Positions 1,431-9,849 of a stretch of DNA of 9,849 nucleotides are shown one piece after another (positions within the stretch are counted from its first letter, which is position 1; each line of letters begins with the position of its first letter). The stretch is taken from the IMG/VR virus record IMGVR_UViG_2671180473_000003, one strand, 5' to 3'. A model generated the notes under the pieces. The model was not told the origin of the DNA. It searched no databases and worked only from the letters and a program-made list of their open reading frames with translations. Both the position numbers and the translations under genes were made by a program. Origin of the DNA: a virus (lineage: Duplodnaviria; Heunggongvirae; Uroviricota; Caudoviricetes).

Positions 1431-3164
1431 TTAAAGCGAGCGGATCCCGTAGGACTCAATGTGGTCAGACAGCGTGTCTTCTTTCTCGTACAGCATGGCT
1501 CTGCCAACCGCCATAATCAGCGCAACTGCACCATCGATTTTGTTTTCCGCCTGCTCTTTGACGGGTTTCACCACATCATCGTTACCCGGCATGTTTTTGC
1601 CGACCACGTTGCCGATACACCAGGTCATGATGGGATTGCCGTCATGATGAAAACGTCCCGATTCAATCGCTGCTTCCAGCTCTTTCATCGGATCGGACAT
1701 ATTGGTGAAGTTCTGGACGATAGTGACGGGATTCAGGTCTTCATCAGCAAGGTCATGTGACAACCCGGTCGCCCCGAAGGGGTCGATGGGTGACTCACTG
1801 ACCGGGCTGATTTTGTTCGCCGCTTTGGCCTCCTCGAGGATGTAGCGATAATCCACCTCCGCACCATCGGTAACGGTCAGAACGCCCATTTCCACCCATT
1901 TCTGAAAGCGTTCGGCTGTCCGTCGATCTTCATTTTTCTCGACGCTGTACACCGTGTCATACGGTACCCAGAAACGCGGGGCCACACTGTAGTAATGCGT
2001 TTTACCGTCAATCTCGCGGGTATAAAGTCGCGCCATGCTGTTCATATCCAGCTTACGCGCCAGGTCAAAGGCCAGAATGCACGGCTGCCCCTCGAACTGC
2101 TCAAGGGTCAGTGATTTATCCTCGCAGCTCTGCCAGCTCACCAAGTTGAAATACGCCGAACGCGCCGACACCCAGATATTGAGGTGTTTTGTTTTAAAGA
2201 CGTTTGCCAGACGGGCGTTATTTTTCGCACGCTGCTGCTGACTTAACAAAAATTCGCGATAAACCGACACGCCAATATTTGGATTGGCTTTTTCCAGCAC
2301 CTGCGGGCCGGTCCAGTCGTCACCTTCATCAACGGTATAGATGATCCCGAACAGTTCATCGTTAGGCACCGAGCCGTTGAGCATCTCGATGACTTCCCGC
2401 CGCTTGTCGTAGCACGGCCCCTCAATGTTGTACCCGGCGGTGGTGATGGCCCACATCAGTGGCTGACGTCGCGCCCCCATCCCGGTAAGCATTGTGGTAT
2501 AAAGCGCATCGGTGGCATGCTCGTGATATTCATCAACCACGGCACAGTGGGGTGATGAACCATCACCTGGGTTGCCGATCAGCGGTTCAAACCGCGCGCC
2601 ATCCTCCGGACGGTTCATGTTTGAGGCGTTAACCTCAATCCCGAACGCTTCCGTCAGCATGGGTGTGCGTTTACACATCAGTCGCGCCGGGCGAAAGACT
2701 TCCCACGCCTGTTTCTCTGTCGTGGCACCGGAATACACTTCCGCGCCAAACTCGTTATCACAGGCAAAACAATACAGGGCAACACCGGCAGAGATTGCTG
2801 ATTTGCCGTTCTTACGGGGGATTTCGGTGTACACCTCCCGGAAGCGGCGCAACCGGGTGCCTTTATTGACCCAGCCAAACGCACAGCAGATCACAAATAG
2901 CTGCCACGGCTCCAGCGTGATGGGCATCCGTTTGAATGCCCACTCCCCCTTGGTGTGCGGCAACAGCTGAATAAATTTCGCGGCCCGTTCAGCCAGGTCC
3001 TTGTCGAAGCGGTAACGAAACGACTTACTTTTTTCCGCCATCAGGTCATCAAGATGGCGCTGGCAGGCCTGAATCACAAACTGGCAGGCAACAATCTTTC
3101 CGCGCACGACATCCCGGGCATACTGATTTGCAGCATTTACGTTGGGGTAAGATTTCCGGCTCAT
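1431..3164 (-). CDS. Phage terminase large subunit
   Basis: 577-aa ORF with a P-loop-like motif (PRKNGKS) and a C-terminal nuclease-type region. Its ATG overlaps the terS stop (ATGA). Confidence 0.92.
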
Positions 3165-3655
3165 GATTCGATAATTTTCAGAAACGGGTTAGTGGCTTTC
3201 TTCTGCCCCGCCAGGCCAATCAGACGCTGGCGGCTGCTGGGGTCGAGTCCGAGCATTGCCCCCGTGCTGCTCATCTCGGACTCCTGTTCTTTTTTGGCGG
3301 TCAGCTCCGGATTTTTGACCCTGCCGCCCATTGCACCGGTGATGGTGTTGCCCTGTATGGCAATATTTTTCACGGCACGTCGCCAGAACTCATAGGCCAC
3401 GCACCACCGCTCAAGTACCGCCAGGTCAGTCACGCACAGCAGGCCCTGACCGCAGAGTTCTTTGGTTGTCAGTTGCCACATGATCGTGGCGAGAGGGAGA
3501 TCTTCTTCAGCGAACCACTCTGGTGGCTCAACACCTTTGATGGGCGTAAAAACAGGTTCATCTTTGTTCAGGGCTCGCTTGCCGGGGTTTCCGGCCAGCG
3601 CCTTGCGCGCCGTTGGCTTGGGGCGACGCCCGGAACGCCCCGCCGTTCCAGCCAT
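3161..3655 (-). CDS. Phage terminase small subunit (P27-like family)
   Basis: N-terminal [24 protein letters not shown] resembles P27-family small terminases. The ATG at 3655 has an AGGAG RBS 8 nt upstream; the ORF track extends to a GTG at 3664, which is too close to the RBS. Confidence 0.85.
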
Positions 3656-3776: not shown

Positions 3777-4127
3777 TCACCGGATTCGTTCGCGCGCTGT
3801 TTTCGCTTTATGGCAGGGCCAGCACAGACTCTGCAGGTTGCTGTCTGCGTCTGTTCCGCCATGCGCTTTCGGGATGATGTGGTCGACGGTTTTCGCCTCG
3901 CTCACCACACCGACACGCAGACACAACTGACACAGACCTTTATCGCGCTTCAGAATACGGGCACGAATCACCGTCCATTTTGAGCCATAGCCACGCTGGT
4001 GGCGGCTCAGTCCGCGCTGGTGCTGCACCCAGCCTTCACCGCGATGTTTATCGCAGTAACCCGAACTGTCTGTGGTTGTACCTGCACATCCACGCTTACG
4101 GCAGGCACGTGGGATTAGTGATGGCAT
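3777..4127 (-). CDS. HNH endonuclease (packaging-associated HNH next to terminase)
   Basis: 116-aa ORF with Cys-rich zinc-finger pairs (CRKRGC...C..H, CWPCH) and the H-N-H core (DHIIPKAHGGTDADSNLQSLCWPCH). ATG start with a GAGG RBS. Confidence 0.9.
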   Translation of the reverse strand: MPSLIPRACRKRGCAGTTTDSSGYCDKHRGEGWVQHQRGLSRHQRGYGSKWTVIRARILKRDKGLCQLCLRVGVVSEAKTVDHIIPKAHGGTDADSNLQSLCWPCHKAKTARERIR

Positions 4128-4169
4128 AAATACCTCATACCCTGCGAAATGTTTACCACGATAAAAAGG

Positions 4170-4412
4170 CTACTTAATGCACTGAGTGCGGATATACTCC
4201 TGTGCCCCTTCCAGTTGCATCTGCATCGTCATCAGCCGCTCTCTGAGGGTGAAATAATCCCGTTCAGCGGTGTCTGCCAGTCGGGGGCTGGTTGCATTAT
4301 CCACGCCGGAGGCGGTGGTGGCTTCACGCACTGACTGACAGACTGCTTTGATGTGCAACCGACGACGACCAGCGGCAACATCAGCGCGCAGAGTTTCATT
4401 TTCAGCTTTCGC
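4170..4412 (-). CDS. Rz: Rz spanin (inner-membrane subunit), C-terminal 80 aa only; the N-terminus lies in the N gap
   Basis: Translation AKAENETLRADVAAGRRRLHIKAVCQSVREATTASGVDNATSPRLADTAERDYFTLRERL... closely matches the lambda Rz C-terminal half as recalled. The ORF runs into the N run at 4413. Confidence 0.85.
   Translation of the reverse strand, partial: AKAENETLRADVAAGRRRLHIKAVCQSVREATTASGVDNATSPRLADTAERDYFTLRERLMTMQMQLEGAQEYIRTQCIK
4232..4399 (-). CDS. Rz1: Rz1 spanin (outer-membrane lipoprotein), embedded in Rz in the +1 frame
   Basis: MKLCALMLPLVVVGCTSKQSVSQCVKPPPPPAWIMQPAPDWQTPLNGIISPSESG has a lipobox (VVVGC) and a penta-proline tract, as in lambda Rz1. The start sits at the gap edge, so the true start could be inside the N run. 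Confidence 0.7.
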   Translation of the reverse strand: MKLCALMLPLVVVGCTSKQSVSQCVKPPPPPAWIMQPAPDWQTPLNGIISPSESG

Positions 4413-4758
4413 NNNNNNNNNNNNNNNNNNNNNNNNNNNNNNNNNNNNNNNNNNNNNNNNNNNNNNNNNNNNNNNNNNNNNNNNNNNNNNNNNNNNNNNN
4501 NNNNNNNNNNNNNNNNNNNNNNNNNNNNNNNNNNNNNNNNNNNNNNNNNNNNNNNNNNNNNNNNNNNNNNNNNNNNNNNNNNNNNNNNNNNNNNNNNNNN
4601 NNNNNNNNNNNNNNNNNNNNNNNNNNNNNNNNNNNNNNNNNNNNNNNNNNNNNNNNNNNNNNNNNNNNNNNNNNNNNNNNNNNNNNNNNNNNNNNNNNNN
4701 NNNNNNNNNNNNNNNNNNNNNNNNNNNNNNNNNNNNNNNNNNNNNNNNNNNNNNNNNN
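4413..4758. other. Run of 346 N (assembly gap or masked sequence) inside the lysis cassette
   Basis: Seen directly in the sequence. All ORF-track translations shown as X across this span are artefacts. Confidence 1.
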
Positions 4759-4848
4759 ACCACCTGGGCCAGTGATTAACACAGATGCTATAGCAACAGC
4801 CCCACCACCAATAGCAGCTGCAACAGCCTTGCGTAATGATGGCGACAT
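4759..4848 (-). CDS. R: SAR endolysin (phage-21 R-like lysozyme), N-terminal 30 aa only; the remainder is in the N gap
   Basis: [30 protein letters not shown] is a Gly/Ala-rich signal-anchor-release domain typical of SAR endolysins. Its ATG overlaps the holin stop (TAATG). Confidence 0.7.
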
Positions 4849-5063
4849 TATTCACCTCTCGCAGCCTTACGCTTGTCTTCTCTTATTTTGAAATACAGAT
4901 TTGTCAGATAAGTCAGAAGCCCCAGAAGCAGACTTCCCAGCACACCAATCGCAGCCCACTGTGATGGACTGACCTGATCCAACCACTGCAAAAACCAGTA
5001 GCCGGCACTGCCGGCGGAGGTGCCGTAGGCAATGCCTGTTGATATTTTTTCCATCTGATACAT
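4848..5063 (-). CDS. S: Class II holin / pinholin, phage-21 S-like, with a dual-start motif
   Basis: 71-aa [74 protein letters not shown] with two transmembrane segments and a charged C-terminus. Met1/Met4 resemble the antiholin/holin dual start of S21. It sits immediately upstream of the SAR endolysin. Confidence 0.9.
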
Positions 5064-5095
5064 ATCCCGCCCCCCGACAGACCTGTGCTATCGGA

Positions 5096-5129
5096 AAGAA
5101 AAAAGGCCATCAGCAAAACTCTGATGGCC
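5096..5129 (-). terminator. Intrinsic terminator just upstream of the holin gene
   Basis: 9-bp stem GGCCATCAG (5105..5113) / CTGATGGCC (5121..5129) with a 7-nt loop. On the minus strand it is followed by TTTTTTCTTTCC. Confidence 0.55.
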
Positions 5130-5239
5130 TGAATCACCTTTACCAATATTGTATGAAAAAACACGCACGACTAATTGACAATAATTTTCATTTCCATTAA
5201 AAAAGATCGCGTAGCATTCTTAATTCATGAGGAACTTTA

Positions 5240-5304
5240 CCCGCCAGCAATCTGAGTAGCGAAAGCTGTTCATCCCCAATGTTTTTGCTGGCGGGTCCTT
5301 TTTT
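5240..5304 (+). terminator. Orphan plus-strand hairpin plus T run (terminator-like), with no plus-strand gene nearby
   Basis: 11-bp perfect inverted repeat CCCGCCAGCAA (5240..5250) / TTGCTGGCGGG (5285..5295) with a 34-nt loop, followed on the plus strand by TCCTTTTTTCT. Confidence 0.3.
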
Positions 5305-5743
5305 CTACGGTCCTCCTCCCCGGAGGGGGGCATTTCATTATTTTTCTAATCGTTACTGGTGAGAAGGCGGAAGAAAAAGCCAGTTCTTCGCCCCTAAATA
5401 ACAGCATGATTCCAGTCCATGCAAAATCTGATTTCCAGCTCACACATACCGAGCACTGTACAAAAAACCGCCAGCCAAGGCAGTTAAGAGTGTGTTCCCG
5501 GGGTTTGCTTAGAATATTTTGTAAGTTGTCCGAAGAGATATTTACAACACCAGAATGATGAATCATCAGTCCCCTGCCAGAGGTTCACTACGTAACCTGA
5601 CCGACAATGCACCATTCTGGTGCTGAAAAAAGAGCACTGGAACTGCAACAAAACAACATCACAGAACAGGAGATGGTAAGGAGTCAGACATTCCCACACA
5701 ATATTGTGTCAGTGCAAATAACAACCTTCGTCTCAAATCTCGC

Positions 5744-5818
<75 letters not shown>

Positions 5819-5821
5819 ATA

Positions 5822-5897
<76 letters not shown>

Positions 5898-5899
5898 GC

Positions 5900-5976
5900 T
5901 GGCCCACCACCGAGGACTCGAACCTCGCACCGTCAACTTAGAAGGTTGATGCTCTATCCGGATGAGCTAGTGGTGG
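5900..5976 (-). tRNA. argN: tRNA-Arg (anticodon UCU), argN/argO-like phage tRNA
   Basis: 77-nt cloverleaf: acceptor CCACCAC/GTGGTGG, D-stem GCTC/GAGC, anticodon stem TCAAC/GTTGA, loop CTTCTAA, T-arm CGAGG-TTCGAGT-CCTCG, encoded CCA. Confidence 0.8.
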
Positions 5977-5977
5977 T

Positions 5978-6054
5978 TGGTGGCCCTTGCTGGACTTGAA
6001 CCAGCGACCTGGCGATTATGAGTCGCTCGCTCTGACCAACTGAGCTAAAGGGCC
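5978..6054 (-). tRNA. ileZ: tRNA with anticodon CAU, probably tRNA-Ile2 (lysidine type), ileZ/ileX-like
   Basis: 77-nt cloverleaf GGCCCTTTAGCTCAGTTGGTCAGAGCGAGCGACTCATAATCGCCAGGTCGCTGGTTCAAGTCCAGCAAGGGCCACCA, resembling E. coli ileX as recalled. Met versus Ile2 cannot be settled from the anticodon alone. Confidence 0.8.
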
Positions 6055-6063
6055 GGAGGCAGA

Positions 6064-6092
6064 ATAATAACCATATGTCATCACATCTGCAA
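6064..6092 (-). promoter_or_regulatory. Putative sigma-70 promoter for the tRNA array
   Basis: Minus-strand TTGCAG (-35; 6092..6087), a 17-nt spacer, TATTAT (-10; 6069..6064), then 9 nt to the 5' end of the first tRNA. Confidence 0.45.
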
Positions 6093-6142
6093 ACTCATCT
6101 GACCACCAGCACGTTTAACGTCCTGTGCCGTTTTTCAGGTAT

Positions 6143-6166
6143 AAAAAAACCCGCTCATCGGCGGGT
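6143..6166 (-). terminator. Intrinsic terminator downstream of the ORF6N-domain gene
   Basis: Minus-strand stem ACCCGC / GCGGGT with loop CGATGA, followed by TTTTTTTAT. Confidence 0.55.
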
Positions 6167-6243
6167 TTAAGCTGTGTGGCGTAGTAACCACTCTTAACAG
6201 GATATTCAACTTTTTACGATCGTAAAGTTTTCGGAAAAAATTT

Positions 6244-6807
6244 TTAAAACCGCATCAACCGCTCCACCAGTTGCTCTTTACGGGCAACGATCCACCCGTG
6301 TTGCTCCAGATAAAATTTAAACCGTTCCAGAGTACATACCATCGCATCGGCGGGTACCTTTTCCGTGAACTCAACCTGACCGTGTTTATCGAAGTGGCTC
6401 AGTAATGCGCATCCATCATTTTCGATAGATGTGTTTTGTGCCGCTGGTGGCTGTTTCTGGTTGAAATAACAGTCTTCCAGTTTTTCGAACACTTCCCACG
6501 CCTGATCGGTTTCGAGCATTTTGGCGTGACGGGCTGCGCCACGTTCTGTCCAGAGGATGAGGGAGCGAACGTTACGGGCAATTTTCACAGAAACTCTTAA
6601 AGAGTTTTCGTTCTTCAACTCTCGTAACGCATCACCTTCTATCAGGAAAAAATGTTTACCTTCTATAAACCGTTCTTTGTTTCGATTGAAATTGTTTGTC
6701 AAACGCTGGCGCTCTGTTCCGTACAAATCAGCCAGCAGCTCTGTTGTCATGACAGGAAGATGGTTATGCGTAAGTGACGGGAGTTTTTCAATAGACGTGC
6801 GATTCAT
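6244..6807 (-). CDS. ORF6N-domain (KilA-N-related) accessory protein with an uncharacterised C-terminal domain
   Basis: The N-terminal region LPVMTTELLADLYGTERQRLTNNFNRNKERFIEGKHFFLIEGDALREL...RSLILWTERGAARHAKMLETDQAWEV matches the recalled ORF6N consensus. Start taken at the ATG at 6807, which has an AAAGGA RBS 7 nt upstream; the long ORF-track form (to 7005) has a GTG start, no RBS and implausible composition. Confidence 0.7.
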   Translation of the reverse strand: MNRTSIEKLPSLTHNHLPVMTTELLADLYGTERQRLTNNFNRNKERFIEGKHFFLIEGDALRELKNENSLRVSVKIARNVRSLILWTERGAARHAKMLETDQAWEVFEKLEDCYFNQKQPPAAQNTSIENDGCALLSHFDKHGQVEFTEKVPADAMVCTLERFKFYLEQHGWIVARKEQLVERLMRF

Positions 6808-7013
6808 AGACATGTCCTTTCGAATATTTTGATTTACCCCTTTTGAGAGGGTGACCGGGCGCTCAAAACCGTCGAAAGTCGGCGGGCGTATTTCCATTGC
6901 TGGTATTGTATTAGCCGCACACCCGGTCATAAACCAAGAATTCTGGACACAAAAAAACCACATGGCTATCGGGTGTGGATACCGCTTTCGAGGTGTTTTG
7001 AGCACCGCGGGGA

Positions 7014-7042
7014 AATGTAAACTGCAAACCTGAAACTGTCAA
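7014..7042 (-). promoter_or_regulatory. Putative sigma-70 promoter upstream of the ORF6N gene (leader of about 200 nt)
   Basis: Minus-strand TTGACA (-35; 7042..7037), a 17-nt spacer, TACATT (-10; 7019..7014). Confidence 0.4.
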
Positions 7043-7165
7043 CACCGTCAGGTTCCAATCATCGGGTGGTGAGACGCACAGGGTTGGAACTACCGGGAAA
7101 CCGACCGGCGAGCTTTTCAGCTCCCCCATGCGCCCCACCATAATTCAGATGTGCGCGTGCATACG

Positions 7166-7192
7166 ACAATAAAAAACACGCTCGCGGCGTGT
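7166..7192 (-). terminator. tR'-like intrinsic terminator ending a short (about 80 nt) pR' leader transcript
   Basis: Minus-strand stem ACACGC / GCGTGT with loop CGCGA, followed by TTTTTTATT, about 55 nt downstream of the predicted pR' start site. Confidence 0.6.
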
Positions 7193-7253
7193 GTCTGTCG
7201 CGGTCTCTATCCGGGGTTCCAATCCCGACGCCAGATTTTGCTGGCGCGTGAGG

Positions 7254-7283
7254 AATATAGCCCCGGACAATGTGTCTGGTCAA
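7254..7283 (-). promoter_or_regulatory. Late promoter pR' immediately downstream of Q
   Basis: Minus-strand TTGACC (-35; 7283..7278), an 18-nt spacer, TATATT (-10; 7259..7254). The -35 begins 5 nt after the Q stop codon, the expected lambdoid arrangement. Confidence 0.55.
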
Positions 7284-7287
7284 GCAC

Positions 7288-7674
7288 CTACATAATTCGT
7301 TCTACGTATCTGTCCATCTCCAGCCGGATATCAAGCATCATCAACATGCCATCAATAACCCCTTCCGCTTTCTGCAGGCGCTTGCCAATACAGGTATCCG
7401 AACACCCATGTTTCCGTGCCAGACTCATAAAAGTCATTCCACCTACGTAATAATCCACCAGCAAATCGTGCAAATCCTGATTTTTCTTGTTCAACCGGGC
7501 CATACAGCCACAAATTATCATTGCATCATCATCAGAACACTGAGGGCGTGATTTCACTTTCGACGGAATTAACCCTTTAAAACCAGCAGCGATCGACGCC
7601 CAGGATACATCTTCATGAGTGTTTGCAGCCCAAGCCCCCCACCGTTCCATAACCTGCTGAATATCACGCGCCAT
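7288..7674 (-). CDS. Q: Late-gene antitermination protein Q (933W/82-type Q family)
   Basis: [35 protein letters not shown]...[16 protein letters not shown]... resembles the 933W-type Q N-terminus and Cys-rich core as recalled. The ATG at 7674 overlaps the rusA stop; the ORF-track start at 7695 would add 7 residues. Confidence 0.85.
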
Positions 7675-8035
7675 CGTTATCACCTGTGATTTCATAAATC
7701 TTCACGCCCAGTCGCCCACCAGGAACGAGCTGACCGCGCACAATATTGATTTCATCAAACTGCTCGTCGTCTATGAGTAGTCCGGCATGCGTCAGCGCAT
7801 CCAGTGGTGCTTTCAGGATATTGTCCAGGTCACGACGGCGCTTATCCGGTGGCTCTGCAATAATCTTTATCGCCAGCCTTCCGGACAGGTTTAATTTCAG
7901 CCGCTGCTGGCGAACAATTAGCGTCACATCACGGCGATAACGCTCACCAACTTTTGATACAAAATATGTGCTGCCACGACGTCGCCAGTAAGTATTCACC
8001 GTCGGCGGATAAGGTAAAATAAACTCATGGCGCAT
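7664..8035 (-). CDS. rusA: RusA-family Holliday junction resolvase
   Basis: 123-aa ORF with the RusA catalytic motif region ([30 protein letters not shown]). It sits between the replication genes and Q, as in lambdoid nin regions. Confidence 0.9.
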
Positions 8036-8292
8036 CAGCGCAGCACCTCCTGCACCATTTTTTCAAACTTTCCAACTTTGGTTTCCAGCTCTGCCACACA
8101 ATCAACGAGCTCATCCACCGCTTTTTGTGCGCGATGTTTCGCCTGCATCAGTTCCCTGAGCGCTGGCACCATATCCCGACGAATGGCATCTTTTGTTACA
8201 CCTGTTTTTTCCAGTTGTTCCGCCTGTCGCAACATTTCCTGCGCGTGTTTACGCAATTGTTCAGAGGTAAAAGTCATTGTCTGGTTGTTCAA
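8035..8292 (-). CDS. Hypothetical small protein (predicted coiled coil), nin-region ORF
   Basis: 85-aa ORF rich in charged residues and heptad-like repeats (EQLRKHAQEMLRQAEQLEK...). Its stop overlaps the rusA start (TGATG). Start is a TTG with a GGAG RBS 8 nt upstream, or the ATG at 8277. Confidence 0.5.
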   Translation of the reverse strand: MNNQTMTFTSEQLRKHAQEMLRQAEQLEKTGVTKDAIRRDMVPALRELMQAKHRAQKAVDELVDCVAELETKVGKFEKMVQEVLR

Positions 8293-9680
8293 AAGAAACG
8301 CTCCATCTTACTGCTGTCGGTACGTGTATTGCTGTATCTGCGCGGCTGGGGCTGCCGCATTGGGGTGGAAAGAACCTGTGCGCTTTCCTGGTCCACAGGC
8401 AGAAAATGTCCGTTATAAAAACGCCGGTAAATCGTCCCCAGAGAACCGTTACGTTGTTTCGTGATATTAATTTCTGCTATGCCTGTAGCCTGTGTATCCG
8501 GGTTGTACACTTCATCCCTGTAAAGCATCAGAATGATGTCTGCATCCGCCTCTATTTCTCCGGAATTTTTCAGGTCTGAGTTCATGGGACGTTTATTGGG
8601 TCTGGACTCCACACCGCGGGAGAGCTGGCTCAGCGCAATCAACGGAAAACCACCGGATTTTGCCAGGCCTTTAAGCCCCTTTGAGATTTCACCCACGGCA
8701 AGGTCATGACGCCCCGTGGTTCGGGTTTTTATCAGCCCGAGATAATCAACCACCACCAGCGCCGTTTCCGGATGTTTAATCAGATGGTGTTTCGTTGTTG
8801 CGCATATCTCATCAATGGTCAGGTTCGCCTGGTCCACCATCCAGATATTGCGCCCGGTCATCCGCCCCACCCCTTGTGAGAAACGCGCCCAGTCTTCATC
8901 TTCAAAGTGAGCCACAGATTTCAGGCGTGATACTGGCATCCCTCCAGCCGCAGACACCATACGTTCACCAATCTGGATGTTCGCCATCTCCATGGTGAAC
9001 AGAAGCACACCATGCCCCTGCTCAGTCACCTTGTCGATGATGTCCAGCGCAAGTTCGGTTTTCCCCATCGAAGGACGGGCGGCAATGAATACCAGGTCTC
9101 CGGGCTCCATACCGCCTGTTTTTGCGTCCAGTTCATCAATACCGGTCATCAACGTCCTGGATTTCTCCAGCCCCTGATTCCGGCATTCAACACGCTCAAC
9201 CACTTCCGGAAGCACATCATCAATATGTACCGGCTGAATGACGCCCTTTCCTGTCGACAGTGTGACCATCATGTTCTGCGCATCCTTCAGGGCATCTTCA
9301 GCTGCTTCACAGGTATGCGCATCACGTAATTTCTGCAGCGCCTCATTCAGTGTTTTTTCTGCATCGCGCAGTGCGGCATTGCGCCGCAACGCTGCAACAT
9401 AGTGCTCCAGTGAAGACTTCACCCAGGTTTTACGCCCGGTATCAGTAATCACCGGGGCAAGTTCCGGCATCTCATTACACAACAGCACGGGGTCAATCAC
9501 TCCTGAAACACGGGCCTGTCTGCAGATGCCTGTGTAGATATCCCGATACGCTCGTACAGAAAAAATGTCCGCCGGTAGTGTGATCAGAATATCCATCACT
9601 TCATGATCTGCCCCACGCAGAAAGAATGCGCCAATGACAGCGCCTTCCAGGTCATCATTACGCCAGACTGGTGTTGTCAT
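8289..9680 (-). CDS. dnaB: Replicative DNA helicase, DnaB family (phage-encoded)
   Basis: DnaB-like N-terminal domain and a RecA-like C-terminal domain with Walker A (AARPSMGKTELAL) and Walker B (ALVVVDYLGL). The ATG at 9680 has a GAGGTG RBS 8 nt upstream; the ORF-track extension to the GTG at 9821 is unlikely. Confidence 0.9.
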   Translation of the reverse strand: MTTPVWRNDDLEGAVIGAFFLRGADHEVMDILITLPADIFSVRAYRDIYTGICRQARVSGVIDPVLLCNEMPELAPVITDTGRKTWVKSSLEHYVAALRRNAALRDAEKTLNEALQKLRDAHTCEAAEDALKDAQNMMVTLSTGKGVIQPVHIDDVLPEVVERVECRNQGLEKSRTLMTGIDELDAKTGGMEPGDLVFIAARPSMGKTELALDIIDKVTEQGHGVLLFTMEMANIQIGERMVSAAGGMPVSRLKSVAHFEDEDWARFSQGVGRMTGRNIWMVDQANLTIDEICATTKHHLIKHPETALVVVDYLGLIKTRTTGRHDLAVGEISKGLKGLAKSGGFPLIALSQLSRGVESRPNKRPMNSDLKNSGEIEADADIILMLYRDEVYNPDTQATGIAEINITKQRNGSLGTIYRRFYNGHFLPVDQESAQVLSTPMRQPQPRRYSNTRTDSSKMERFF

Positions 9681-9849
9681 GCAGCCACACCTCTGATACA
9701 AGAACGGTAGCTGGGCCAGTTGAACGACAACCAGTTGCGCCCCCCGTCTGTGATCCTGTCGGCAATGCGGGGGCTGATGAACGCTGGATTTGCCCCTATA
9801 TTTCCAGACACCTGTTATCACTTAACCCATTACTGGCTTGCTGCCGTAG

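Follow-up and report, generated by a model that had tools for sequence, protein, structure and literature searches.

A non-coding tract composed of two modules

We analyzed a stretch of 9,849 nucleotides from a tailed-phage record (Caudoviricetes; IMG/VR record IMGVR_UViG_2671180473_000003), referred to here as the window, and focused on the tract at positions 5064–5743, which separates the start of the holin gene (ATG at 5063) from tRNA-Gly. By coordinates the tract measures 680 bp, rather than the approximately 640 bp given in an earlier, sequence-only reading of the window. All three features marked by that reading, namely a minus-strand terminator, a plus-strand hairpin with a T run and a 14-bp palindrome, are present at the positions given. 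The tract and its surroundings are organized as follows.

4848–5063, minus strand: P21-type holin (Pfam PF04971, E 1.5e-35)
5095–5444: module B, a conserved unit upstream of P21-type holins
5462–5743, minus strand: module A, a structured 3′ trailer running from the end of tRNA-Gly to a terminator U-run
5744–5818, minus strand: tRNA-Gly, bounding the tract on its upstream side
7288–7695: gene for the Q antiterminator, upstream of the tract

The earlier statement that the tract contains no credible open reading frame holds. Its two longest ORFs gave no Pfam match, the only minus-strand ORF that all three module B sequence types have in common spans 17 codons, and 75% of the indels between variants of module A have lengths not divisible by three. 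On these grounds we rejected a small protein or a protein-coding moron. A plus-strand ORF of 10 codons was also set aside, as it lacks a Shine-Dalgarno sequence and its changes are mostly non-synonymous. PGAP annotates a “hypothetical protein” here in just some genomes. No homology was detected to the K-12 DLP12 nmpC-essD intergenic region.

The whole tract was found in only 9 E. coli genomes, whereas its parts are widespread: positions 5064–5444 alone match approximately 1500 E. coli records at 85–87% identity, and positions 5459–5727 alone match 369 genomes at 66–78% identity. As judged by these matches, two modules make up the tract as a mosaic, and each is conserved separately. The junction lies near 5445 and was missed in the sequence-only reading; in relatives, this position is occupied by TerB and DUF3927 genes or by another promoter-plus-terminator unit. 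That reading had proposed to examine whether the tract is conserved as a unit; it is each half that is conserved. Across 4800–6400 we counted 8 terminator-like sites, against 1.5 ± 1.3 expected.

A late-strand terminator and a candidate antisense sRNA in module B

We found module B in 1427 of 5426 complete E. coli genomes, about a quarter, and on 558 plasmids, one of which (IncF) we inspected. It travels with P21-type holins, and many of its carriers are, by their strain names, ST131 or APEC strains. The copies fall into three closely related sequence types, two in prophages and one on plasmids. As there are only these three close types, with no compensatory changes among them, the structures described for this module rest on conservation and on the placement of substitutions. 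Its most conserved segments are the terminator T_B and the plus-strand hairpin.

5093–5130, minus strand: T_B, a strong late-strand intrinsic terminator lying 33 nt ahead of the holin ATG
5175–5203, plus strand: sigma-70-like promoter of the candidate sRNA (TTGACA, 17 nt, TAAAAA), read from the sequence
5210–5304, plus strand: candidate antisense sRNA of ~95 nt, with a ~30-nt 5′ tail, a branched terminator hairpin (5239–5296) and U6 (5299–5304); its 5′ end is predicted
5310–5331, plus strand: second hairpin with a T-rich tail, called by the terminator scan and probably not functional

T_B is a G+C-rich stem-loop followed by a U-run, as expected for an intrinsic terminator. Its stem (5130–5104) has 10 bp, 6 of them G-C, and a loop of 7 nt, and is followed by TTTTTTCTTTC down to approximately 5093, where the U-run region reads T6CTTTC. 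It was called by the terminator scan, with a folding energy of −18.5 kcal/mol (z −2.8), and is identical in both prophage sequence types, which bears out the minus-strand terminator that had been placed at 5096–5129. An equivalent late-strand terminator lies 46 nt before the holin in prophage PP2 of EPEC E2348/69. The earlier proposal, in which this terminator keeps the lysis genes insulated until the arrival of polymerase modified by Q, is supported, by inference, by the conservation of T_B, by its PP2 equivalent and by the Q gene at 7288–7695.

In the late control of lambda-type phages, transcription starts at the constitutive promoter pR′, meets one or more downstream terminators and reads through them when RNA polymerase has been modified by Q. 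The window shares with this scheme the upstream Q gene and the late-strand intrinsic terminators ahead of the lysis genes. It differs in having at least two such terminators (T_B and T_A, described below) after an internal tRNA operon with its own promoter-like site, and in that T_B is just 33 nt from the holin ATG.

On the opposite strand, the hairpin with a T run that had been noted at 5240–5304 is present and is built from an outer stem of 12 bp (5239–5250 with 5285–5296) and an inner stem of 8 bp (5253–5260 with 5265–5272) closed by a GAAA loop, followed by CC and the U6 tract. It folds at −31.6 kcal/mol (z −3.6), and none of 200 shuffled sequences folded equally well. It is also the least variable segment, with changes in 9% of alignment columns versus 17–61% elsewhere. 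All four substitutions that distinguish the hairpin of the window from that of AR0086 fall at unpaired positions. The changes are asymmetric between strands: two inner-stem G-U pairs, and a substitution of A by G in another copy (L055) that creates a G-U pair, are compatible with pairing on the plus strand only. The 36-nt branched interior and the 2-nt spacer before the U-run mean that the hairpin may terminate transcription inefficiently.

This hairpin had been described as an orphan, facing a direction in which no plus-strand gene exists. That description does not stand, as a conserved TTGACA lies approximately 60 nt upstream; this element and its A-rich −10 were overlooked in the sequence-only reading. 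The −35 TTGACA is invariant in all three module B types, and in all three it and the A-rich −10 lie at a fixed distance from the hairpin. In the commonest type the homologous promoter reads TTGACA-18-AAAAAT and scores 10/12 with the promoter scanner; the −10 of the window, TAAAAA, lacks the final T, so that the scanner makes no call there. Among the roles once suggested for the tract, a small RNA is the one that best accounts for the plus hairpin, and we regard the plus-strand unit as a probable gene for an antisense sRNA. The candidate is located 147–241 nt upstream of the holin ATG, antisense to the holin-lysozyme operon. We rejected pairing of its C-rich internal loop or 5′ tail with the G-rich Shine-Dalgarno region ahead of the holin, in the manner of a type I antitoxin, as the duplex energies were no better than those of shuffled sequences. 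A literature search found no paper containing the hairpin sequence.

The second plus-strand hairpin (5310–5331) was rejected as a functional terminator: 53% of its columns vary, neither the AR0086 type nor the plasmid type retains it, and the length of its G-run differs among otherwise identical copies. On the IncF plasmid that we inspected, iss precedes module B by ~400 bp and is encoded on the same strand, and no lysis genes are annotated. In the plasmid copy, the outer stem contains an A-C mismatch and T_B is weakened, so that spread on plasmids may reflect hitch-hiking with iss rather than selection.

The hairpin and U-run could instead be a mere terminator of rightward (antisense) transcription from plus-strand moron genes, such as those of the iss/bor type, located within the lysis cassette or past it, the TTGACA being fortuitous. 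Such genes do occur downstream of the lysis genes in relatives (iss; a hypothetical gene at 4198–4470 of locus L002), the arrangement on the IncF plasmid suits this idea, and the −10 of the window is imperfect. We nevertheless consider it unlikely, given that the TTGACA and A-rich −10 keep their distance from the hairpin in three types, with a score of 10/12 in the commonest, and that the prophage hairpin, located past the entire lysis cassette, is distant from any plus-strand gene. Moreover, PasA, an RNA in the same position, has been validated as an sRNA in its own right (PMC8550237).

Comparison of the candidate with known prophage sRNAs

PasA and PasC of EPEC E2348/69 (EHEC homologues EcOnc51/52) are Hfq-dependent by Northern blotting and have RIL-seq targets (Pearl Mizrahi et al. 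2021, PMC8550237). They adjoin the holin-lysozyme operon and are reported to be enriched in EPEC/EHEC (Zhu, Shabalina and Storz 2026, bioRxiv 10.64898/2026.05.13.724894). At the PasA locus that we retrieved (L003), PasA occupies 2916–3000 on the minus strand and the holin begins at 3214 on the plus strand; in PP2 of E2348/69, PasA is antisense and lies between a cargo gene and the holin.

The candidate and PasA/PasC are alike in several respects. Each occupies the intergenic region just ahead of a class II holin, in antisense orientation to the late operon, is approximately 80–95 nt long, has a TTGACA −35, and ends in a terminator hairpin whose GCCAGC/GCUGGC-type stem carries an unusually large loop and leads into a U-run; each also has a late-strand terminator between the sRNA promoter and the holin. 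By contrast, the candidate hairpin is branched, its inner stem being closed by a GAAA loop. The distributions differ as well, with the candidate found in many named ST131/APEC strains or on iss-linked plasmids (one inspected), and PasA/PasC in EPEC/EHEC.

Homology between them was rejected. A MAFFT alignment shows none, and Smith-Waterman scores did not exceed those of shuffled sequences (p 0.53 and 0.71). A covariance model of PasA/PasC gave no match to the window hairpin at E up to 10, nor did a model of the window hairpin match the PasA/PasC loci, and the candidate element is missing from the E2348/69 loci examined. The motif GCCAGCA...CGAAAG...UGCUGGC is common to the candidate and PasA/PasC; it is a hint only. 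The functional analogy with PasA/PasC is drawn from position and layout only.

A second point of comparison is provided by the anti-sRNAs AgvB and AsxR and the “convergent sRNA” pairs at the lambdoid moron site (Tree et al. 2014, PMC4104026; RF02702, RF02703). Like the candidate, they are small antisense RNA genes downstream of the late promoter pR′, which depends on Q, between cargo and the next phage ORF, each with its own promoter and intrinsic terminator. They are shorter (51–60 nt versus ~95 nt), and AgvB and AsxR combine a conserved 3′ domain of ~42 nt (…GTATCTCATGC.ATTGCCCGAACCCA.TCGGGC TTTT), missing from the tract, with a variable 5′ end of 14–18 nt. In the window the candidate is paired back-to-back with a terminator and is not convergent with a sense sRNA. 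AgvB and AsxR themselves were rejected, as their published sequences are not in the tract and the tract gave no match to their Rfam families. Rfam 15 gave no match at E up to 1 for the window or E up to 10 for the tract, where the best scores, including those of GcvB (RF00022), STnc100 (RF02076) and Esr41 (RF02676), were 10–22 bits against gathering thresholds of 37–245. We rejected STnc100 and every other Rfam family for the tract, and also PasD (PasD2 local alignment, p 0.2–0.45).

A conserved RNA fold in the tRNA trailer

In the window, module A begins at the first base after tRNA-Gly; the same holds for 61 distinct variants taken from lambdoid prophage loci that we retrieved. Its principal elements are listed below.

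5716–5710 with 5639–5633, minus strand: helix 1, a long-range stem enclosing helices 2, 3 and 4
5696–5709, minus strand: helix 2, the palindrome hairpin (ACAC/GUGU; columns 43–46 and 52–55 of alignment A5)
5643–5664, minus strand: helix 4 hairpin, stem retained in 98.6% of cells
5544–5626, minus strand: helices 5 and 6, a long (~29 bp), G-U-rich extended hairpin
5462–5484, minus strand: terminator T_A, ending module A (stem-loop 5484–5467, U-run to 5462)

The RNAalifold consensus for module A comprises 57 pairs in 7 helices. Among 20 variants, 97.2% of the alignment cells at these positions are paired, as compared with 32–54% when the partners are slid, and there are 7 compensatory pairs and 28 double-change cells, a number reached by none of 500 shuffles. 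When the set was enlarged to 54 variants, which are 61–69% identical to the window, 98.4% of cells were paired and compensatory pairs numbered 9. Helix 1 has 6 of its 7 pairs invariant among 20 sequences, the closing pair alternating between G-U and G-C, and its stem is kept in all 54 variants. G-U pairs, which are abundant in the fold, place the RNA on the minus strand. On this covariation, module A is a conserved structured RNA, beyond what the slid and shuffled controls produce. It matched no Rfam family, and an nhmmer search led us to reject a link to the RIL-seq candidate beside the pseudo-tRNA-Gly in PP10 of E2348/69, as no homology was found.

The long hairpin at 5626–5544, which is conserved, was overlooked in the sequence-only reading. 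Its two helices contain 23 and 6 pairs, with 95–99% of cells paired, 3 compensatory pairs and numerous one-sided changes among G-U, A-U and G-C. RNase III processing hairpins are known from polycistronic phage transcripts, for example the T7 R sites and the lambda N leader. Like these, the module A hairpin is long, imperfect, contains G-U pairs and lies between functional units; the resemblance is of form only, and we claim no sequence relationship. It is a candidate RNase III-type processing or stability element.

At its downstream end, module A terminates in a stem-loop followed by a U-run on the transcribed strand, as expected of an intrinsic terminator. This late-strand terminator (5484–5462) went unnoticed in the sequence-only reading, and our scan called it at 5485–5466. 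Its helix (helix 7) is paired in 100% of cells among 20 variants and is followed by T6–T9; in the window it is weaker, owing to a U-G wobble (−10.7 kcal/mol, z −1.6). In 41 of the 61 variants there is no terminator, and module A runs on toward a gene that, where annotated (SerU-LTIIb), is a holin gene. A promoter-like site, TTTGCA-18-TATTAT, is located just upstream of the tRNA array.

Beyond the cis roles of trailer and terminator, module A or a fragment cut from it could act in trans as a regulatory RNA or sponge derived from the tRNA precursor, in the manner of 3′ETS-leuZ, the 3′ external transcribed spacer of a tRNA operon that acts as an RNA sponge. Each is a non-coding RNA that immediately follows the final tRNA of its operon and shares its transcript. 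Module A is larger (~280 nt versus ~50 nt), highly structured and phage-borne, and, unlike 3′ETS-leuZ, in most relatives continues toward a gene that, where annotated, is a holin gene. Its conserved structure is more elaborate than a terminator requires, and the scaffold contains a variable hairpin, helix 4, which in this lineage matches the R1 seed of GcvB. These points speak for a trans-acting RNA, whereas the element looks like an mRNA leader in the 41 terminator-less variants, no Hfq-type U-rich 3′ end is found near the variable hairpin, and E2348/69, the strain used for RIL-seq, yielded no homolog. We judge such a role to be quite improbable.

In the lineage of the window, helix 4 carries a match of 17 of 18 nt to the R1 seed of GcvB (5663–5646; score 31 versus 19.2 ± 2.3 for the null, p ~0.001). 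The segment resembles the seed rather than complementing it, and a more specific reading is that the trailer is a scaffold presenting variable helix 4 as a trans-acting seed, with a GcvB-mimicking RNA released from the tRNA precursor. The 18-mer is missing from all homologs, so we rejected it as a conserved feature and keep this reading only as a very unlikely one. GcvB targets are amino-acid and peptide transporters. If the mimic were real, it could repress the targets of GcvB or soak up the GcvB sponges SroC and AgvB, and it would be the mirror image of AgvB, the phage anti-sRNA.

Conservation of the tract and of its palindrome

The earlier reading had named a poorly conserved spacer as part of what would refute it, and the remnant of lost cargo as one possible content of the tract. 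The former does not describe it, since both halves are conserved modules; of the latter, what remains is that relatives carry other units at the junction near 5445. A neutral spacer or decayed remnant, whose hairpins are chance or relic structures with no present function, would be consistent with the recombination visible at that junction, with the unconserved second plus hairpin and its varying G-run, and with the decay in plasmid copies. Against it, module A has retained its fold at 61–69% sequence identity with compensatory changes, which is a strong counter-argument; the terminator and hairpin of module B are far less variable than their flanks; and terminator-like sites are approximately 5-fold above expectation. 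We therefore hold there to be very little chance that the tract is without function.

The perfect 14-nt palindrome ACACAATATTGTGT at 5696–5709 was confirmed. Taken alone it is only mildly unusual, as a palindrome of this length arises in 3.8% of tract shuffles, and 0.34 are expected per window where two are present. It is perfect only in the lineage of the window; homologs have ACACATTATATGTG(T/G) or ACATATTATATGTG, with altered centre and length. The middle pair of helix 2, in the set of 54 variants, is U-A in 36, C-G in 11 and U-G in 4. The palindrome thus behaves, by these compensatory changes, as an RNA hairpin nested within a larger conserved fold rather than as a conserved protein-binding site, one of the contents once proposed for the tract. 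That it is a DNA operator for a dimeric regulator beside the tRNA array, as its perfect symmetry, rare among shuffled tracts, might suggest, is hardly credible given its restriction to one lineage, the co-variation of its pairs as an RNA stem and its position inside long-range helix 1.

Discussion

With the sequence features and their conservation, the covariation within module A, the asymmetry between strands and the non-coding nature of the tract established, we favor, with a probability of roughly 0.6, the reading that the tract is the non-coding leader of the late (lysis) operon of a prophage, joined near 5445 by recombination from two RNA-level modules with the roles outlined here. The following model infers transcription, termination, processing and regulatory targets from those features. 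Module A would be co-transcribed with tRNA-Met/Arg/Thr/Gly and would fold into a multi-helix structure that includes the palindrome hairpin. The long hairpin is most likely a processing or stability element, parting the tRNA precursor from the downstream mRNA. Because module A ends in T_A, transcripts from the tRNA promoter would stop there in the lysogen, and T_B would stop any polymerase lacking Q modification. The putative sRNA gene, with its branched GC-rich hairpin, lies back-to-back with T_B and points away from the holin; its product would be a ~95-nt RNA in antisense to the late leader. On the analogy of PasA/PasC, which have this position and orientation in EPEC prophages, the sRNA would most likely act by base pairing in the lysogen, with host mRNAs, with read-through late transcripts, or with both.

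The region from Q to the lysis genes of lambdoid prophages is the site of Shiga toxin and other cargo, and the regulatory sRNAs AgvB, AsxR, PasA–D and StxS are known in it. The window adds two uncatalogued RNA candidates to this region, which is a modest addition and not a new kind of system. The first is a family of structured RNAs associated with phage tRNA-Gly genes; its covariation support would allow curation as an RNA family, and tests could address a role in processing or lysis timing. The second is a candidate antisense sRNA that resembles PasA but is unrelated to it. If neither RNA is expressed, the tract would be a well-insulated late leader. If the sRNA is expressed, regulation by prophage sRNAs would extend beyond the EPEC/EHEC strains studied, and the combination of a terminator and an antisense sRNA gene just before class II holins, assembled two or more times from unrelated sequences, would point to a functional requirement at this site.

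Gene neighbourhood of the tract

The window covers the late region of a lambdoid prophage, whose transcription runs on the minus strand (here the late strand). Pfam also identified an HNH endonuclease and a small terminase subunit in addition to the genes below; the Rfam matches listed are all above the gathering threshold.

Genes and RNAs around the tract
8289-9821, DnaB (Pfam)
7664-8035, RusA (Pfam)
7288-7695, antiterminator Q (Pfam)
7208-7260, minus, c4-a1b1 (Rfam)
7171-7247, minus, isrK (Rfam)
7062-7145, minus, C4 antisense RNA (Rfam)
6845-6928, minus, sRNA-Xcc1, within the ORF6N coding sequence (Rfam)
6244-7005, ORF6N protein (Pfam)
6054-5744, minus, tRNA-Met(CAT), Arg, Thr and Gly (ARAGORN)
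4848-5063, P21-type class II holin (Pfam)

The Rfam matches between Q and the tRNA array (6845-7260, minus strand) look like a P1/P7 immI-type C4/antirepressor cassette, directly after Q at the expected site of pR' and its terminator. The first tRNA (5978-6054), Met (CAT) by ARAGORN, is tRNA-Ile in the RefSeq annotation of a near-identical prophage and is probably ileX-type, with a lysidine-modified CAT anticodon. The gene that follows the holin, expected to be the endolysin, is largely hidden by a run of 346 N (4413-4758); because of this masking, ORF calls around it (e.g. 4402-4848) are unreliable, and the masked gene had zero Pfam matches. In our scan the tRNA array is directly preceded by a promoter-like site, TTTGCA-18-TATTAT, and ORF6N is followed by a terminator.

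The tract spans 680 bp from tRNA-Gly to the holin ATG. The sequence-only reading had seen no credible gene there, and we agree: its two longest ORFs have no Pfam matches, the sole ORF common to homologs has 17 codons, and three quarters of the indels among homologs are frame-breaking. The structured elements were found where that reading had put them, namely a minus-strand terminator (stem 5130-5104 plus T-run; -18.5 kcal/mol, z -2.8), a plus-strand hairpin (5239-5296, with U6 at 5299-5304; -31.6 kcal/mol, z -3.6, no shuffle folding equally well) and a 14-nt palindrome (5696-5709). Terminator-like sites are in about five-fold excess in 4800-6400 (8 versus 1.5 +/- 1.3 expected). The palindrome by itself is only mildly unusual: 3.8% of shuffled tracts contain one. 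Another perfect palindrome of 14 nt, TTTACGATCGTAAA, occurs at 6213-6226, between the ORF6N stop codon, which it immediately follows, and a minus-strand terminator (6168-6147).

The tract is a mosaic of two modules

Among 5426 complete E. coli genomes, Megablast found the whole tract in just 9 (99.3-99.9% identity), whereas 5064-5444 alone was matched by about 1500 records (85-87%). The interval 5095-5444 was matched by 558 plasmids, and distant relatives of 5459-5727 (66-78%) occur in 369 genomes and in phage SerU-LTIIb. Among deposited phage genomes there was no high-identity match to the tract; searching them again at higher sensitivity gave short partial matches only, in five phage records. 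Judged from these matches, the tract is a mosaic with a junction near 5445: as a whole it is rare, but each half is conserved separately.

Elements of module A (5462-5743) and module B (5095-5444)
5716-5710 with 5639-5633, minus, helix 1, long-range
5696-5709, minus, helix 2, the palindrome, a short hairpin within helix 1
5626-5544, minus, helices 5 and 6, extended hairpin of about 29 bp
5484-5462, minus, terminator T_A, helix 7 plus U-run
5310-5331, plus, second hairpin of module B; 53% variable columns
5239-5296, plus, main hairpin of module B; 9% variable columns
5130-5093, minus, terminator T_B; 17% variable columns, no differences between the two prophage types
Module B flanks; 20-61% variable columns

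Module B encodes a candidate antisense sRNA

Module B occurs as three sequence types, that of the window, a common chromosomal type (e.g. strain AR_0086) and a plasmid type, together present in 1427 of the 5426 genomes. Between the window and AR_0086 types, all four substitutions in the main hairpin fall at unpaired positions; adjacent G-U and U-G pairs in the inner stem would be A-C mismatches on the opposite strand, and one variant changes A-U to G-U. These features indicate that the hairpin is a plus-strand RNA. An invariant TTGACA lies about 60 nt upstream, followed after 17-18 nt by an A-rich -10. The scanner called this promoter in the commonest type (10/12, TTGACA-18-AAAAAT) and left it uncalled in the window; an extra A there removes the final T of the -10. 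The predicted product is an sRNA of about 95 nt (5210-5304), antisense to the late leader; T_B stands back-to-back with its promoter, 33 nt from the holin ATG. Direct pairing between this sRNA and the holin translation-initiation region was no better than for shuffled sequences. The second hairpin, absent from two of the three types and differing in G-run length, is probably non-functional. Copies that are otherwise identical (the window and relatives L009, L014, L023 and L041) have G6, G5 or G4 in its G-run (5322-5329), through either homopolymer length polymorphism or sequencing slippage.

Tree et al. (2014, PMC4104026) described prophage sRNA genes that lie downstream of pR', at the moron site. 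PasA and PasC of EPEC E2348/69 have been validated (Pearl Mizrahi et al. 2021, PMC8550237, table S6) and lie directly beside the holin-lysozyme operon (Zhu et al. 2026, bioRxiv 10.64898/2026.05.13.724894). In E2348/69 prophage PP2, PasA is antisense, between an esterase gene and the holin, and a late-strand terminator precedes the holin by 46 nt, the same layout as in the window. We rejected membership in the PasA family: global and local alignments with PasA/PasC were at chance level, and covariance models of either side did not find the other. The tract matched neither AgvB, AsxR, PasD, STnc100 and GcvB nor any other Rfam family. By position and anatomy, the candidate may work like a PasA-type sRNA from outside that family.

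Module B is also found on conjugative plasmids. In the one inspected, the IncF plasmid pMTY20902_IncFI (3501-3844), it sits between iss, about 400 bp upstream of it, and the iro genes, and the annotation shows no lysis genes there; about 558 other plasmids have the module too. In the plasmid copy, the sRNA stem contains an A-C mismatch and T_B is weakened. The common prophage type has a further plus-strand unit just upstream of module B (AR_0086 locus, 5399-5525). Its promoter (TTGCAA-18-TATTAT) and terminator (5466-5487) converge on minus-strand terminators (5525-5502), matching the 'convergent sRNA' arrangement of Tree et al.; module A takes its place in the window.

Module A as a probable structured trailer behind tRNA-Gly

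Module A starts at the base after the phage tRNA-Gly in all relatives inspected. We recovered 61 distinct variants. Of these, 20 end in a terminator, as in the window (AACCGCC-loop-GGCGG plus T6-9). The terminator is missing from the remaining 41, which continue, where annotated (SerU-LTIIb), toward the gene that opens a two-holin/endolysin cassette. SerU-LTIIb (KU052038), an LT-IIb toxin phage, has two trailer copies (3893-4209 and 5793-6115). Each sits between a tRNA-Gly and a holin1 gene, one of which is the duplicate holin1a, so a single block of tRNA, trailer and holin was duplicated.

RNAalifold on the 20 terminator-type sequences gave a consensus of 57 pairs in seven helices. In these sequences 97.2% of cells pair, versus 32-54% with slid partners; double changes number 28 cells in seven pairs, which no shuffle exceeds, and one-sided changes frequently pass through G-U. 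Across 54 variants with 61-69% identity to the window, core pairing was 98.4%, with nine compensatory pairs. The number of G-U pairs shows that the RNA belongs to the minus strand, which is tRNA-sense. We read module A as the tRNA operon's structured 3' trailer. The hairpin of helices 5 and 6, long enough for weak matches to Rfam miRNA-precursor models, is probably a processing or stability element.

A protein-binding site had been among the suggestions for the tract. The palindrome's middle pair covaries in the 54 variants (U-A in 36, C-G in 11) and it is perfectly palindromic in the window lineage only, which argues for an RNA hairpin rather than a protein operator. In helix 4, 5646-5663 (minus, UGUGAUGUUGUUUUGUUG) shares 17 of 18 nt with the R1 seed of GcvB, an sRNA of the host (p about 0.001 versus shuffles). 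The segment is specific to the window lineage, homologs having an unrelated, longer loop; the match is probably coincidental, and we retain a functional reading at low probability.

Implications for late transcription

The tract contains two conserved modules of non-coding RNA, seemingly uncatalogued, since neither has an Rfam match and our literature search found the module B hairpin sequence in no paper. Their kinds are already known: a structured phage leader/trailer with terminator for module A, and a candidate moron-site antisense sRNA for module B. The original observation is confirmed and its interpretation partly supported; the proposed insulation of the lysis genes from upstream promoters is supported, with two terminators in place of one.

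By sequence, conservation and analogy, transcripts from the tRNA promoter would halt at T_A in the lysogen, and polymerases leaking past it would halt at T_B, so that Q-modified polymerase alone would reach the holin. Its own promoter would drive the plus-strand sRNA, whose pairing partners may be host mRNAs, as for PasA, or late transcripts that read through.
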